Below are positions 258 through 5,066 of a DNA stretch of 5,066 nt, piece after piece. Within the stretch, counting starts at the first letter, position 1, and the number at the start of each line of letters is the position of its first letter. The notes under the pieces were generated by a model that was not told where the DNA came from, ran no database searches, and worked only from the letters and a program-made list of their open reading frames with translations. The translations under genes and the position numbers were made by a program. This DNA comes from a virus: the IMG/VR virus record IMGVR_UViG_3300045988_041365. One strand, given 5' to 3'.

Positions 258-1934
258 TTAGTGATGATCAATAAGACCGGGAATAGAATACATCGGCATA
301 GGCCGCGTTGCACGATTCTTGATGTAAATATCAGCAAAAAGCTGATTAGAGACAGTAGACTTAACAGCAAGGACACGGTCTACAGTATTCTTATCTTCAC
401 GAATCCAAGAAGCAGACAGAGCAGGGAGTTTGTCATAATCATCAGCAAGATGCCAAACATCGAGAGACTGAGCATAGGAAGAACGCATTTCACCGGTGAC
501 GCGGTTTGGCTTATATCGATAATCAGACCAAGCTTCCTGATAACCAAAAACCTCATCGTCAGCTTTAGTACCCTGAGCAAAAATTTCCTTGTTCTTGACA
601 GCCTGCTCACCAATATTAGCAAAAACAGGCCAGTAGAAATCAAAGCGCGTCTTACGCGACCAATGACGCTCAATACCCTGCTGGTAAGTATGATCATAAC
701 GGGCAACCATGACACCGATAATATAACCGTGCTCCGTAAAGCTCTTGATGAAATCAGCGTGAGAATCAGTGGTTTGAGACATACCAACAACAGTACCCTG
801 AGGAGTATCAGCACCAGCACCAGTACCAGACTGCTGTATAACCTGATTCACATTGATAGGAATACGATTGCCTCCAAGATATTCGGGACGCTGCAGACGG
901 GCGTCAGGAGAAGTAACGCCAAAATGAGACTTGAGAATCTCAATATAACGGGTACCACCGCGAGCATCACGCTCGTAAAGCTTCTGAATCTGAAAAGCCA
1001 TTCGCAGCTGGTTAATAGTAGCGACAATAGCATTACCAGAATTCAAAGCAAAAAGATTGGACGGAATTCCAGCGATAGAATTGTCAGTAGCAGGAGAAGT
1101 ACCATCGGCATAAAGGGCAGTAGAACCGCCAGACGAACCAGCACCATAACCAGCTTTCAACTGACCCTGAAAAATAGCATTACCAACACCTTTCCAACGT
1201 AAGGGAGTATTCAAATCCTGTCCAGTCAGAGCATATCCATCGAGCGGAACAACAGGAAGATTGCCCTGAGCGGCAACAGAAAGAGTTACATCAGGGCCTT
1301 TCTGAGGGCTGGGAAGACAGCTCGTGAAATAATCATGATACTTAGCAGCAATATAAGGCTTACCGCCTTTTGCAACATCTGAAATAAAAGTACCAGAATT
1401 AACACCCTGAACAGTAGCATCATCGACAGGAACAACGAGAGGATCCTGCAGATTCTGATCACGGAACCACTCATTCATGACGAGCGCATAAGCTCGAAAC
1501 GGAAGAGCACTAACAGAAATACCCTCAACACCAGTCGGAAGACCGAAATAATCAGCCAAAGTACCAACAGACCAGCCACCGGAAGGAGAAGTAATCTGCG
1601 GAATACTATACTCAGTTTGCGGAAGCCAAGCAGATTCCGTATTTTCTCCGTTAAACTCTTTCCAATGATTCCAAACAAGTCGATTCGGAACAAAGAAATA
1701 ATACGTATCCAGATAAACGTTATCCATCATAGGAGTAAGCAAAGTCTGCATACGTACTACTTTCGAAGAGGTAACATTGAAAGTGTCTCCGGGAAGGACT
1801 TCTTCGAGAAAGAAAGGGATAATGTCACCGACATTAAACGAAGTTTTAATAGAAGCCGAACGATCAAAAGTAGATCGACTCATATCAATTCGAGTCGGAT
1901 TTAAAGCAAAATGAGATTCAACATTACGATTCAC
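258..1934 (-). CDS. VP1: Major capsid protein VP1 (Microviridae F-protein family), 558 aa, GTG start.
   Basis: The N-terminus MNRNVESHFALNPTRIDMSRSTFDRSASIKTSFNVGDIIPFFLEEVLPGDTF matches the conserved gokushovirus VP1 start (..RS.FDRS..K..F..G.L.P....EVLPGDTF). The first in-frame start after a TAA is a GTG at 1934..1932, with GGAGG 9 nt upstream. This is the largest ORF in the window and ends at a TAA at 258..260. Confidence 0.9.
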   Translation of the reverse strand: MNRNVESHFALNPTRIDMSRSTFDRSASIKTSFNVGDIIPFFLEEVLPGDTFNVTSSKVVRMQTLLTPMMDNVYLDTYYFFVPNRLVWNHWKEFNGENTESAWLPQTEYSIPQITSPSGGWSVGTLADYFGLPTGVEGISVSALPFRAYALVMNEWFRDQNLQDPLVVPVDDATVQGVNSGTFISDVAKGGKPYIAAKYHDYFTSCLPSPQKGPDVTLSVAAQGNLPVVPLDGYALTGQDLNTPLRWKGVGNAIFQGQLKAGYGAGSSGGSTALYADGTSPATDNSIAGIPSNLFALNSGNAIVATINQLRMAFQIQKLYERDARGGTRYIEILKSHFGVTSPDARLQRPEYLGGNRIPINVNQVIQQSGTGAGADTPQGTVVGMSQTTDSHADFIKSFTEHGYIIGVMVARYDHTYQQGIERHWSRKTRFDFYWPVFANIGEQAVKNKEIFAQGTKADDEVFGYQEAWSDYRYKPNRVTGEMRSSYAQSLDVWHLADDYDKLPALSASWIREDKNTVDRVLAVKSTVSNQLFADIYIKNRATRPMPMYSIPGLIDHH

Positions 1935-2421
1935 TTACATTCACCTCCTGTTTCATTTCATGAACAACGGGCGCATCAACCTGCGGAGCATCGACCACAG
2001 AATGTTCGACCATGCCCAACTTCTCCAGCCAATCGTTAGATCCGGACTGGGATAGGAACTGCTCGAACGAACAATCAAACTTCTGCCGAACTTCCAGCGG
2101 CAACGACTTGAACATCTCTTCACATTCATTAATCCTATTAAGCGCATCGGCCATATTGGTCGGAAAATCGGTTACATCTGCATAAAAGCCCTGAGCACGG
2201 GAAAGGGCTTCAGTATCGCCATTGGCAAAACGGGCGAGAATAACGTTGATATCGACACTATCAGCAAAGGACTGAATATAAGCATAAAGATCTTCAGTGC
2301 CTTTTTCCTCAAGAACAACACGTCCATTTGCATCATAGCGACCGGAGTACAGCTGCTTAACGCGAGAACCAGAGCAAGGATGAATACGTTCACGCGGGGA
2401 ATACTGGGTTTTAAACTCCAT
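1924..2421 (-). CDS. VP3: Internal scaffolding protein VP3-like, 165 aa.
   Basis: The ATG at 2421 has AAGGAGG upstream. The protein MEFKTQYSPRERIHP...YSGRYDANGRVVLEEKG...LPLEVRQKFDCSFEQF resembles gokushovirus VP3 scaffold proteins, and its position immediately upstream of VP1 fits. Its stop overlaps the VP1 start by 11 nt. Confidence 0.7.
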   Translation of the reverse strand: MEFKTQYSPRERIHPCSGSRVKQLYSGRYDANGRVVLEEKGTEDLYAYIQSFADSVDINVILARFANGDTEALSRAQGFYADVTDFPTNMADALNRINECEEMFKSLPLEVRQKFDCSFEQFLSQSGSNDWLEKLGMVEHSVVDAPQVDAPVVHEMKQEVNVSES

Positions 2422-2620
2422 CTTTCAAATTAGCCTCCTTTAATTTAACATCATCAAAAGCAAAAGACTGATCGAGCATACGCTCATCAACGCTTCCATC
2501 CGGACGAGCAAAACGATCATAGACAATATCAAGGAGATCATCAATCAGATCAAGAAGCCGATCCTTGGAAAAAGTCTTGCGAACGAAAGCCACAAAAATA
2601 ACAAGAAGTTTATCCTTCAC
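2411..2620 (-). CDS. Small acidic hypothetical protein, about 69 aa, GTG start.
   Basis: A GTG at 2620..2618 is preceded by GGAGG with 9-nt spacing (tgcttcGGAGGtgttgcgccGTG). The product VKDKLLVIFVAFVRKTFSKDRLLDLIDDLLDIVYDRFARPDGSVDERMLDQSFAFDDVKLKEANLKDGV has mixed, non-repetitive composition, unlike the L-rich frame artefacts elsewhere. It fills an otherwise 190-nt gap in a compact genome. It overlaps the upstream ORF by 11 nt and VP3 by 11 nt, the same geometry as the VP3/VP1 junction. Confidence 0.5.
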   Translation of the reverse strand: MKDKLLVIFVAFVRKTFSKDRLLDLIDDLLDIVYDRFARPDGSVDERMLDQSFAFDDVKLKEANLKDGV

Positions 2621-2864
2621 GGCGCAACACCTCCGAAGCATCAGCAACAACAAAAGGAACAGGCAACACCTCACAGACACCAGAATCGGTATCAAACGAG
2701 GCCAACTTGAAGAGGGAAAAATCATTGGGATGAGAATTGAGCAAGGAATCAGGCTGATTAACAGCATGTTCGAAATTACGGAGAGCAGACGCATCATTAG
2801 CGTCAACAGTCGGGGTCATAAAACCAGTCTTTGCGTCCTTGATAGCATACATACCCAATTTCAT
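2610..2864 (-). CDS. Conserved-looking small protein, 84 aa; possibly the VP5-like nonstructural protein of gokushoviruses.
   Basis: The ATG at 2864 has GGAGG 9 nt upstream. Its ATGA start/stop overlap with the upstream J-like ORF indicates translational coupling. The protein is MKLGMYAIKDAKTGFMTPTVDANDASALRNFEHAVNQPDSLLNSHPNDFSLFKLASFDTDSG... No homology search was possible. Confidence 0.6.
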   Translation of the reverse strand: MKLGMYAIKDAKTGFMTPTVDANDASALRNFEHAVNQPDSLLNSHPNDFSLFKLASFDTDSGVCEVLPVPFVVADASEVLRREG

Positions 2865-2974
2865 AGTCTAATACCTCCACGAAAAATTTTAGGTGCAATG
2901 TTAATCTTTTTCGATTTTGCCGCAGTACGGCGGAAAATCTTGTTGTCAAGCTTGGGTGGATTTCTACGTCTCAT
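2861..2974 (-). CDS. Small basic DNA-binding protein, 37 aa; analogue of phiX174 J and of gokushovirus ORF8.
   Basis: Not in the supplied ORF track because it is under 60 aa. The ATG at 2974..2972 lies 1 nt after the Rep TGA and has AAGGAAG 7 nt upstream. Translation is MRRRNPPKLDNKIFRRTAAKSKKINIAPKIFRGGIRL. It is strongly basic (13 of 37 residues are K or R), and its hydrophobic C-terminal RGGIRL resembles the ...RGGIRF ending of Chlamydia-phage ORF8 (recalled, not searched). Its stop TGA overlaps the ATG of the next ORF as ATGA. Confidence 0.6.
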   Translation of the reverse strand: MRRRNPPKLDNKIFRRTAAKSKKINIAPKIFRGGIRL

Positions 2975-2975
2975 G

Positions 2976-3944
2976 TCACAACTTCCTTTCAAGAGATTTT
3001 ATCTTATCAGTCAAGGCTTGTTCCTCGACGGCAAGACGATCATATCTGTCCAAAGATGTACGAAAATCCTTGGCTTCCTCAGCAGCAGCAGCTAAACGAT
3101 GACGAACGGCTTTAGCCTGCTTCATCTCATCGGGATGATCAATGTCAAATAAACGATCATAATAACGAGGAGGACGAAACTTCAAACCACCAACATCAGT
3201 GCCAAGATTGATGTATTCATGCTGATACAAATCTGGATGATCATCATAATACTGACGAGCGATTCCGGGTTTCCGGGACATACGAACAAATTCCGGTACA
3301 AGATTCAAATCCGAATACAGAGAAGCATCCTGACCTTTAAGCTTTTTCATAACATATCGAGCAGTATAAGCGCAAGATTCCCAAGTTACGGCGCCGACCA
3401 CAACAAAGCCGAGACCCCAACACTCAGTAAGAGAATCACTAATGAAATAATCATAACCTTGGGGGGAACGTTTGTAGGGTCGCAGATCATCGAGAGACAA
3501 TCCAAAAATAATTGAGTGATAATGAGGGCGAGCAGTAGTAGAGCCATACTCGCCACAGGCAAAGTACCGAATGTGATCATCTGGGTGAGCCTTTCTTAAG
3601 CGTTTCCAAAACAATTCCAAATCACGAGGTCTTAGCGTCAAAGCAGGAGCAGCCTCCCCATCATCATTGATAGCATAAGCAGTACGAGGCACGTGATCGT
3701 CATCATAAGTCAACGTCACAAACCAAGATTCCTTATGATACTGTAGCTCAAGCATACAGCGGTTAGCCCATTGACGGCTATACTCGAGCCGGCAACCAAT
3801 ACATTGACCGCAGGGGAGCTGCAAGCGCTGCCACGAGGGATAGACCTCGCTGGCATGCTGGCCAGACAATATTTTGATATTGCGTTTTCCATTAGCTGTC
3901 CTTCCAGGGAGAATAACAGCTTCCAAAGGATGATAGCACGGCAT
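2976..3944 (-). CDS. VP4: Rolling-circle replication initiation protein VP4 (HUH endonuclease superfamily I; phiX174 gene A family), 322 aa.
   Basis: The protein starts MPCYHPLEAV. Motif I is FVTLTYD, the HUH motif is PHYHSIIFG, and the catalytic double tyrosine is AYTARYVMKK (YxxxY). The ATG at 3944 has an AGGTGAT SD. The stop is a TGA at 2978..2976. Confidence 0.9.
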   Translation of the reverse strand: MPCYHPLEAVILPGRTANGKRNIKILSGQHASEVYPSWQRLQLPCGQCIGCRLEYSRQWANRCMLELQYHKESWFVTLTYDDDHVPRTAYAINDDGEAAPALTLRPRDLELFWKRLRKAHPDDHIRYFACGEYGSTTARPHYHSIIFGLSLDDLRPYKRSPQGYDYFISDSLTECWGLGFVVVGAVTWESCAYTARYVMKKLKGQDASLYSDLNLVPEFVRMSRKPGIARQYYDDHPDLYQHEYINLGTDVGGLKFRPPRYYDRLFDIDHPDEMKQAKAVRHRLAAAAEEAKDFRTSLDRYDRLAVEEQALTDKIKSLERKL

Positions 3945-4070: not shown

Positions 4071-4090
4071 TGCTAATCTCCATCTTTGGT

Positions 4091-4154
4091 GTCACTCAGC
4101 ACAGTTACATCAAGAGAGTAACTGTGCTGAGTGACCGGCCGCGATACGCGGCCG
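4091..4154. repeat. Two adjacent stem-loops: an 18-bp perfect inverted repeat (4091..4108 / 4118..4135, loop 4109..4117) and an 8-bp all-GC hairpin (4136..4143 / 4147..4154, loop ata). Candidate replication-origin or primosome-assembly structures.
   Basis: gtcactcagcacagttac-atcaagaga-gtaactgtgctgagtgac is a perfect 18-bp stem. cggccgcg-ata-cgcggccg is an 8-bp GC stem. Both lie in the only sizeable non-coding region. Confidence 0.45.
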
Positions 4155-4195
4155 AGGTGATCAACGAAACTGCATACCATTTTGGCAAGGAGTGC

Positions 4196-4241
4196 AAAAA
4201 AGAAGCGGAGCTTGGCGCAGGGGCGCGACTCGCTTCGCTTC
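4196..4241 (-). terminator. Rho-independent terminator downstream of VP2, at the end of the polycistronic unit. It also reads as a hairpin plus T5 on the plus strand.
   Basis: The mRNA strand reads GAAGCG(aagc)GAG-tcGCGCccctGCGCcaag-CTCCGCTTC followed by TTTTTT, about 20 nt after the VP2 TAA. On the plus strand the same hairpin is followed by cctttttaaaaaag. Confidence 0.6.
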
Positions 4242-4259
4242 CTTTTTAAAAAAGAATTT

Positions 4260-5066
4260 TTACTTTTTGTAAAGACGGAACGTACCAGAAAAATCCTTGA
4301 AATACGTACGACCGTCAGAACCACGATACAAAACATCCTTATTACGACCAACACCAGAACCATATGCACCAGCAATAGGCGTAAAAGTCTTACGGCCTTG
4401 ATACTCACGATCATAACCAAAAGACCGACTACCAGACGAACCAGAAGACGAACCACCATAATTATTGTTGGTGGTAGTACCACCATTATAATTAAAAACA
4501 TCAGGCCGCCGAGCAGCAGCAGCGGCTACCATAGCAGCATCACGACCGGAAGCAATACCACGATCAGTAGCCATCTGGGCAACAGCAGTCGCAGCACGCT
4601 CAGCAATACCCGCCATATCAGACACAAAGCGTTTATCGCTGCCATAGCGAGAGGCTTCAGAAGACTTATCTGCACCATAGCGCGAGGCCTCAGCCTGAAT
4701 ATCGGCAACAATCCGAGACATAGCAGTATACTTGTCAGCGACAGCTTCCTGAGTACGAGCATTGATATTAGCGGCCTCAATCTGAGTATTGGCAGCAAGG
4801 ATAGAACCAAGCAAGTTTGCAATAGCACCGTTGGCAGACATATCAGTTTCACCTTTGGCACCTTGAGAGGTCACACCTTGAGCAGTTGCACCGGAACCGA
4901 CAGAAGCGCCGTTTCCATTCATAGCAGAAAGCACAGGGTTCAAACCAGCCGCCATCAAATCACGAACTTCACGCTGATGAGCAGTATTAGACATCATCGC
5001 CTGCCAGTTTCGATTATTAGCGGCCTCATTTTGATTAAACATCATCGCTTTAGCATTTTGCTGCTC
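4260..5066 (-). CDS. VP2: VP2 minor capsid / DNA pilot protein, C-terminal portion including the stop. It is truncated by the window edge and continues circularly into 1..212.
   Basis: The protein is Gly/Ser/Ala-rich, with a ...REVRDLMAAGLNPVLS... motif typical of gokushovirus VP2 and the C-terminal end ...GRTYFKDFSGTFRLYKK. The stop is a TAA at 4262..4260. It follows VP1 in the canonical order. An internal 33-nt imperfect tandem duplication encodes EASRYGADKSS / EASRYGSDKRF. Confidence 0.85.
   Translation of the reverse strand, partial: EQQNAKAMMFNQNEAANNRNWQAMMSNTAHQREVRDLMAAGLNPVLSAMNGNGASVGSGATAQGVTSQGAKGETDMSANGAIANLLGSILAANTQIEAANINARTQEAVADKYTAMSRIVADIQAEASRYGADKSSEASRYGSDKRFVSDMAGIAERAATAVAQMATDRGIASGRDAAMVAAAAARRPDVFNYNGGTTTNNNYGGSSSGSSGSRSFGYDREYQGRKTFTPIAGAYGSGVGRNKDVLYRGSDGRTYFKDFSGTFRLYKK
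4972..5066. repeat. Terminal redundancy: a 95-nt exact copy of positions 1..95. It marks linearisation of a circular 4,971-nt genome.
   Basis: Direct base-by-base comparison of the window start and end: cgctgatgagcagtattagacatcatcgcctgccagtttcg...ttgctgctc is identical at both ends. Confidence 0.95.

Follow-up and report, generated by a model that had tools for sequence, protein, structure and literature searches.

Small orphan genes are common in the microviruses. The lineage-specific open reading frames (ORFs) of these phages average about 65 amino acids (aa), and few of them have an assignable function (Kirchberger et al. 2022, PMC9239249). Gokushoviruses of the human gut have been described with the gene order VP4-VP5-VP3-VP1-VP2 (PMC3394797), while microvirus prophages in Gram-positive bacteria have only rarely been reported (PMC9239249). 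Here we describe a 69-codon frame situated between VP5 and VP3 in IMG/VR virus record IMGVR_UViG_3300045988_041365, a stretch of 5,066 nucleotides (nt), hereafter the window, which represents a complete or nearly complete gokushovirus genome with the described gene order and every gene on the minus strand. A first-pass annotation, made from the letters alone, had put this frame forward as a novel acidic protein and perhaps a second scaffolding or packaging factor. Our comparisons indicate that the frame is very probably a genuine gene, confined to a single clade of gut gokushoviruses, which encodes a protein with a conserved core and a hypervariable tail, and we weigh the roles that such a protein might play.

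The reading frame and its conservation

The frame runs on the minus strand from a GTG start codon (2620-2618) to a TAA stop codon (2413-2411), and its full product is MKDKLLVIFVAFVRKTFSKDRLLDLIDDLLDIVYDRFARPDGSVDERMLDQSFAFDDVKLKEANLKDGV (GTG start read as Met), which includes DLIDDLLDIVYDRF. A Shine-Dalgarno sequence, GGAGG, at 2634..2630 on the minus strand lies inside the 3' end of VP5 and is separated from the GTG by a 9-nt spacer, a GGAGG-N9 layout common to VP1 (GGAGG-tgaatgtaa-GTG at 1934) and VP5 (GGAGG-tattagact-ATG at 2864). On the minus strand, 11-nt overlaps join the start of the frame to the end of VP5 (2610..2620; VP5 stop TAA at 2612-2610) and its stop to the start of VP3 (2411..2421; VP3 ATG at 2421-2419). 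The frame is offset by 1 nt from that of VP3, whose own GGAGG at 2438-2434 lies within the tail-coding part of the 69-aa gene, and without the ORF the 188 nt from 2422 to 2609 would be non-coding. In all of these particulars, namely the GTG start and its ribosome-binding site, the arrangement shared with VP1 and the upstream 84-aa ORF, the two overlaps and the otherwise non-coding stretch, the first-pass annotation had read the sequence correctly. Length alone lends the ORF no significance, because as many as 37 ORFs in the window reach 30 aa or more, and long ORFs in incorrect frames are numerous among them; it is conservation in relatives that raises this one above chance.

The closest GenBank genomes are three from pig faeces, MG945586, MG945407 and MG945570, at about 88% nucleotide identity. 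With VP3 as bait, 22 IMG/VR genomes were fetched in which VP3 is 66–82% identical, and five further copies of the 69-aa family ORF, already predicted by independent gene callers, were taken from contigs of metagenome-assembled genomes (MAGs) and of Logan/ENA. The detailed set comprised 28 sequences, made up of the window and 27 relatives whose VP3 identity is 66% or higher; all of the relatives are metagenomic.

A homologous ORF occupies the same position in 25 of the 25 relatives first fetched (3 from GenBank and 22 from IMG/VR), and a hidden Markov model of the family matches 31 of 31 fetched close relatives. Within the detailed set the start codon is ATG in 25 sequences and GTG in three, two of the three pig-faeces genomes having ATG in place of the window's GTG, and 22 of the 28 retain the GGAGG-N9 arrangement. 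In 24/28 the beginning of the ORF shares 8 or 11 nt with the end of VP5; in the other four, where VP5 terminates sooner, the start is served by an AGGAG-type site of its own. L007 alone among the relatives lacks the overlap between the stop of the ORF and the VP3 start. Intact copies fall into seven length classes (43, 51, 53, 57, 66, 67 and 69 aa), in all of which the frame is kept. Every insertion or deletion preserves the frame, including a clean 36-nt in-frame deletion in one pig-faeces genome, and no frameshift was found in the frame in any relative. The sole premature stop is a CAA-to-TAA change at codon 51 of L007 (1458-1460), beyond which the frame runs unchanged to the usual stop; this nonsense codon removes part of the variable tail only and leaves the conserved core intact.

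Selection was estimated by the pairwise Nei-Gojobori method over the non-overlapping codons 5-37. Pairwise differences at codon positions 1, 2 and 3 numbered 3567, 2076 and 5502 respectively, third positions dominating. The median ratio of nonsynonymous to synonymous substitution (dN/dS) was 0.15 in the 69-aa frame, and over the same codons the two alternative frames gave 1.3 and 1.5, all three values being drawn from pairs that are not phylogenetically independent and for which the proportion of synonymous differences (pS, 0.5–0.65) is near saturation. Stops occur in the other two frames in 23/26 and 26/26 sequences. For the same genomes, median dN/dS was 0.13 in VP5 and 0.12 in VP3. Because start codons, the GGAGG-N9 arrangement and frame-preserving lengths are conserved and in-frame dN/dS is low, we consider it very probable that 2620..2411 on the minus strand is a real protein-coding gene, translated and under selection; the assignment of this interval to a 69-aa accessory protein draws on its translation, an identical catalogued protein, the family profile and dN/dS. 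The first-pass annotation had regarded the frame as a gene distinct from VP3 and expected relatives to conserve it with dN/dS below 1. Both views are upheld: relatives show no frameshift, and the one premature stop, at codon 51 of L007, spares the core.

In GenBank the frame is unannotated in all three of the closest genomes. Features labelled 'similar to VP3' in MG945407 (L002, 1457-1999) and MG945570 (L003, 1425-1967) begin too far upstream, at the longest ORF, and cover the 3' part of the 69-aa gene; VP3 homology begins at MFDTQY.

These annotations, in which VP3 starts inside the region, would accord with the view that the region has no function of its own and merely carries ribosomes from VP5 to VP3, forms a non-coding spacer or belongs to VP3 as an N-terminal extension. 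The overlaps with both neighbours, which fit translational coupling, and the weak constraint on the tail would suit that view also. Yet codons 5-37 are under purifying selection (median dN/dS 0.08–0.15) and ten residues are invariant among 120 sequences, while the extensions annotated in MG945407 and MG945570 have no counterpart in other VP3 proteins. Moreover, the region is not an extension of VP3, a possibility that the first-pass annotation had itself raised, because the VP3 frame upstream of the VP3 start contains stops in 23 of 26 sequences. We find it scarcely credible that the region lacks a function of its own, and a coupling spacer or VP3 extension is essentially excluded.

Core, tail and family status

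The product divides into a conserved core, codons 1-37 (2620..2510, minus strand), delimited by an AlphaFold2 model, column conservation and dN/dS, and a variable, mildly acidic tail, codons 38-69 (2509..2414, minus strand), delimited by dN/dS, length classes, divergence and the predicted local distance difference test (pLDDT). AlphaFold2, supplied with 120 sequences, places helices at residues 2-16 and 19-37 with pLDDT of 82–91, the range over residues 1-30, and a third helix, of low confidence (pLDDT about 54), at residues 44-66. The core is accordingly modelled as a hairpin of two amphipathic, aromatic-rich helices. Ten residues are invariant among the 120 sequences (M1, K2, F12, V13, K15, T16, F17, D28, L29 and D31), and all of these, together with all 13 near-invariant columns, fall within residues 1-37, where median dN/dS is 0.08 among long forms and 0.15 overall. 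Helix 1, which includes LLVIFVAFV, combines a hydrophobic, aromatic character with basic ends; helix 2 is amphipathic in the classic manner, one of its faces being acidic. Since the hairpin on its own would expose a hydrophobic surface, it may oligomerise or bind a partner.

The tail evolves faster (median dN/dS 0.43; ratio of the proportions of nonsynonymous and synonymous differences, pN/pS, 0.60), and its coding sequence falls to 17–35% identity between genomes that are about 90% identical elsewhere, where no other patch diverges more. It is missing from the 43-aa forms and shortened in L007, and is apparently dispensable in these genomes. The description of the whole protein as acidic holds to a degree, its isoelectric point (pI) being 4.7; with a net charge of about -3.5 it is only mildly to moderately so.

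The hydrophobic character of helix 1 (LLVIFVAFV) invites the suggestion of a lysis protein, a single-gene factor like phiX174 E. We know of no lysis gene in gokushoviruses, and the 69-aa protein is a small product of a phage in which Pfam and PHROG scans recognise none. The N-terminal transmembrane helix of E-type proteins was not seen, however: averaged over 19 residues, Kyte-Doolittle hydropathy peaks at 1.09, under the usual threshold of 1.6, so that no transmembrane helix is expected, and the hydrophobic run extends for nine residues with charges on both sides. A separate, strongly hydrophobic ORF of 36 aa that follows VP2 in some relatives is the better membrane-acting candidate. Lacking a transmembrane segment, and with a better candidate ORF in some relatives, the 69-aa protein is quite improbable as a lysis factor. 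The 36-aa ORF (MSSDLVMVFLLLAALVVPAVSFVAVVIAVIRWLNRH) overlaps the VP2 stop in several relatives (L027, 11286-11396; L028, 4799-4909; L127, 4699-4809; L125, about 11346-11444) and may encode a peptide that acts on the membrane or in lysis; a separate copy of it is absent from the window.

The 69-aa protein has no match in Pfam, PHROGs or NCBIfam (Pfam and PHROGs at E up to 1), nor has a 131-aa longer version of the ORF in PHROGs, nor have the 43- and 51-aa variants in NCBIfam. Profile searches of PDB sequences gave nothing significant (best E-value 0.81), and Foldseek searches with the AlphaFold2 model returned a best E of 1.9 in BFVD and no match in PDB, a lack of fold matches that is to be expected because the model is a two-helix hairpin. 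Membership of the VP3 scaffold family finds no support in PF09675 (Chlamy_scaf) or PHROG 1642, neither of which is matched, and the pI of 4.7 and net charge of -3.5 depart from the small, strongly basic proteins of the VP8/J type.

The family has nevertheless been predicted many times. A public protein catalogue contains about 185 clusters (90% identity) of homologues of 43–75 aa, mostly on contigs of about 5 kb; these were predicted by independent gene callers and are all merely 'hypothetical protein', and the exact 69-aa protein is already catalogued as P0001. The first-pass claim of novelty is therefore right in that no curated family covers the protein, and wrong in that both it and its many relatives already stand as hypothetical predictions. 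An exhaustive HMMER profile search of 1.84 billion representatives (50% identity) yielded no more than six real clusters, its other hits being four spurious repeat proteins. When 50,697 phage records were searched by tblastn with an E-value limit of 10, only the three pig-faeces relatives were recovered, and scanning the representative genomes of GTDB gave no confirmed locus of the family. No name or description of the family was found anywhere in the literature and databases searched. What emerges is an orphan family that has no name and is cleanly defined, though its type is a familiar one.

Distribution and possible roles

A more distant set of 17 gokushoviruses was assembled from 16 genomes with VP3 40–50% identical, taken from a broader VP3 alignment, plus Dulem virus 147. 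VP5 directly abuts or overlaps VP3 in 16 of these 17; in the set, L116 has a VP5-VP3 gap of about 300 nt without a homologous ORF. Because it is present in all close relatives and absent from the 17 more distant ones, the 69-aa gene is, across the genomes sampled, an accessory confined to one gokushovirus clade, fixed there and absent from its neighbours.

Sister clades possess a variable accessory slot of their own between VP8 and VP5, which contains unrelated ORFs of 45–127 aa (L109, 852-1235; L112, 1114-1251; L114, 991-1247; L115, 615-785; L117, 815-1045; L118 to L124, about 990-1200; L026, 4205-4357). In L109 the slot ORF belongs to Peptidase_M15_3 (E = 4e-25) and probably encodes a lysis enzyme. 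The 50-aa hypothetical VP8-VP5 ORF of Dulem virus 147 was considered as a homologue of the 69-aa protein and rejected, the hhalign probability being 0.5%.

Our tentative preference is for a protein-binding accessory cofactor of particle assembly or genome packaging. Translational coupling is suggested because the gene overlaps VP5 at one end and VP3 at the other, and ribosomes might thus pass along a chain from VP5 through the 69-aa gene to VP3; the product would then be translated together with VP5, VP3 and VP1. The hairpin would serve as a protein-binding or oligomerising module, and the protein could then act with VP5, VP3 or VP1 in assembly or packaging. Its place between the C-like VP5 and the scaffold VP3, overlapping both, argues weakly for such a role, as do its universality in the clade and a constraint like that on core genes. 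Divergence of the tail weakly though significantly tracks that of VP3 (r = 0.28 and p = 0.0015 in a Mantel test; r = 0.26 and p = 0.0045 in the partial test given VP5), and in the same Mantel analysis it does not track that of VP5. Small scaffolding proteins are helical and partly acidic, a generic resemblance to the 69-aa protein. Coupling of the tail to the hypervariable loop of VP1 was also considered and rejected (Mantel r = 0.04, partial r = -0.04).

Several considerations weigh against a part in assembly or packaging. The family profile matches 0 of the 17 more distant gokushoviruses, and these genomes retain homologous VP5, VP3 and VP1; since sister clades with all three lack the gene, the conserved assembly pathway works without it. 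No similarity to any scaffolding or packaging protein was found by sequence, profile or fold, and in a 5-kb single-operon genome the position of a gene says little about its function. Physical adjacency could account for the correlation between tail and VP3. Between VP4 and mid-VP1 the tail is matched in variability by a single other stretch, the hypervariable surface loop of VP1; hypervariability of this kind, alongside the VP1 loop, is also typical of host-interaction genes, and orphan genes that are confined to one clade and sit in variable slots often have a host-directed role. The specific proposal of a second scaffolding or packaging factor had been a guess from position and is not supported, given the want of sequence, profile or fold similarity and the gene's absence from sister clades.

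Nearly as likely as an assembly or packaging role, and a distinct possibility in its own right, is a host-directed accessory, in which the hairpin would bind a host protein for takeover, superinfection exclusion or counter-defence and the tail would adapt to different hosts. The distribution of the family favours this, being restricted to one clade with no relatives outside it among the 1.84 billion representative proteins. The VP8-VP5 slot of the sister clades, with its unrelated small ORFs and one Peptidase_M15_3, likewise suggests that this part of the genome takes up accessory genes, and between near-identical genomes the variability of the tail equals that of the VP1 surface loop. The core, however, is conserved like the structural genes and was never lost in the clade, unlike typical counter-defence genes, which are patchy. 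The type of 69-aa-family protein is also independent of the type of VP1 loop. VP1 is more than 90% conserved across the clade save for one hypervariable loop of ~60 residues (about 231-290; window about 1065-1240, minus strand), and the same loop types co-occur with different family types, 43-aa and 66-aa, a pairing which indicates mosaic recombination. A host-directed role through DNA mimicry is opposed by the 43-aa family members, in which acidic and basic residues are about equal in number, and the net charge of the core (residues 1-37), -0.5, is unlike that of DNA-mimic anti-restriction proteins of the Ocr, ArdA and T7 gp5.9 type.

A different line of evidence concerns lysogeny. A close relative of the phage that carries the 69-aa gene is integrated in Oscillospiraceae chromosomes in three independent assemblies, the observations drawing on L027, L125 and L127 and, for the empty site, L029. 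On MAG contig CAVFIC010000006.1 (L027) a direct repeat of 19 bp, GGATATCGCATCCCCTTAG, bounds an element of 5,074 bp on both sides, at 6649-6667 and 11723-11741. The cultured Hominicoprocola fusiformis CLA-AA-H269 (L029) has a single copy of the repeat at an uninterrupted site, with a flanking YchF that is 99% identical, and in a second MAG, GCA_021636575.1, the phage adjoins a similar SLH-domain gene. No integrase lies within the 5-kb integrated element. From these assemblies the clade appears to lysogenise Oscillospiraceae.

In a clade that integrates without an integrase gene of its own, the 69-aa protein could direct or activate a host recombinase. The three integrated copies with the gene, the repeat at both junctions in one of them, the single-copy empty site in a cultured relative and the missing integrase would all suit such a protein. 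The window, however, has the gene yet lacks the 19-bp core, even at 3 mismatches, and the protein matches no helix-turn-helix or recombinase-related family; we rate a lysogeny cofactor as very unlikely. We also hold it unlikely, if less remote, that the protein is a clade-specific life-cycle cofactor in Gram-positive Oscillospiraceae, either a mini-scaffolding or packaging protein with an assembly-tuning tail or a factor recruiting host recombinase for lysogeny.

Genomic setting and known systems

The gene belongs to a chain of overlapping genes on the minus strand comprising VP4, VP8, VP5, the 69-aa gene, VP3 and VP1. VP4, the replication initiator, occupies 3944..2976 (minus strand), and the best sigma-70-like promoter of the coding strand lies directly upstream of it. 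VP8 (2974..2861, minus strand), a J-like basic protein of 37 aa (MRRRNPPKLDNKIFRRTAAKSKKINIAPKIFRGGIRL), begins 1 nt past the stop of VP4 and shares 4 nt with the start of VP5; the protein is close in sequence to a protein annotated 'DNA binding protein' in Dulem virus 147. With this gene accounted for separately, and a pI of 4.7 for the 69-aa protein, the first-pass distinction between the latter and the basic J-like protein was well drawn. The unnamed 84-aa ORF that it placed upstream is a gene of known identity. It is VP5 (2864..2610, minus strand; PF20577 Phage_ORF5, E = 5.6e-26; PHROG 1670, labelled 'DNA binding protein', E = 7.5e-27), and it is complete, the Phage_ORF5 Pfam profile being matched end to end. 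VP3, the internal scaffolding protein, lies at 2421..1924 (minus strand; PF09675 Chlamy_scaf, E = 1.1e-38); its residues 28-143 match Chlamy_scaf, and a complete VP3 is already present in the genome. VP1 (1934..258, minus strand; Phage_F) has a terminator-like hairpin on its 3' side, and VP2, the pilot protein, is at 5045..4260 (minus strand).

The intergenic region from VP2 to VP4 contains an inverted repeat, perfect over 18 nt and enclosing a loop of 9 nt (GTCACTCAGCACAGTTAC / GTAACTGTGCTGAGTGAC), at 4091-4135 and, adjacent to it at 4136-4154, a perfect 8-nt hairpin (CGGCCGCG / CGCGGCCG), followed by an AT-rich promoter region. The repeat and hairpin could be origin or recombination-site structures, and the hairpin loop in this intergenic region resembles part of the attachment (att) core of the integrated relatives. 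A very hydrophobic ORF of 142 aa (4073-4501, minus strand) is overprinted on the 3' end of VP2 and extends into the intergenic region; it was rejected as a gene, and is probably a by-product of composition, because its frame is interrupted by stops in relatives.

A conserved small hypothetical protein in a microvirus would not, taken alone, surprise a specialist. The present gene would nonetheless raise from six (VP1 to VP5 plus VP8) to seven the real genes in the standard annotation of this clade of gut gokushoviruses, correct GenBank records in which the region is blank or VP3 is stretched over it, and define an orphan family by its conserved 37-residue helical hairpin and hypervariable tail. 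Oscillospiraceae are major and poorly tractable gut bacteria, and the cultured relative with an empty attachment site makes the gene approachable by experiment; it could show how microviruses adapt to Gram-positive hosts.

Among described systems, the closest likeness is to the small lineage-specific ORFs of other microviruses, which the 69-aa gene resembles in size, in orphan status, in restriction to a sub-lineage and in its location among core genes on a single coding strand. It differs from them in lying at the VP5-VP3 junction, whereas the variable ORFs of its sister clades lie between VP8 and VP5, and in being never lost within its clade and constrained like the core genes. Like VP3 and phiX174 protein B, it stands next to the scaffold and coat genes, overlaps the start of the scaffold gene, and encodes a protein predicted to be helical with conserved aromatic residues and an acidic region; unlike them, the protein is much smaller, shares no sequence or profile match and is absent from sister clades. 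PhiX174 protein C and VP5 offer a further comparison, VP5 being a small non-structural protein encoded in the cluster that also contains the 69-aa gene. A separate, complete VP5 adjoins that gene upstream, however, and shows no similarity to the 69-aa protein. PhiX174 J and VP8 are also small proteins of the same operon, but the 69-aa protein is acidic and VP8 is a separate gene. Finally, it recalls phiX174 E in its small size and hydrophobic N-terminal helix, and departs from E in that it has no segment of transmembrane length, matches no family, and is encoded by a gene of its own rather than one overprinted inside another.

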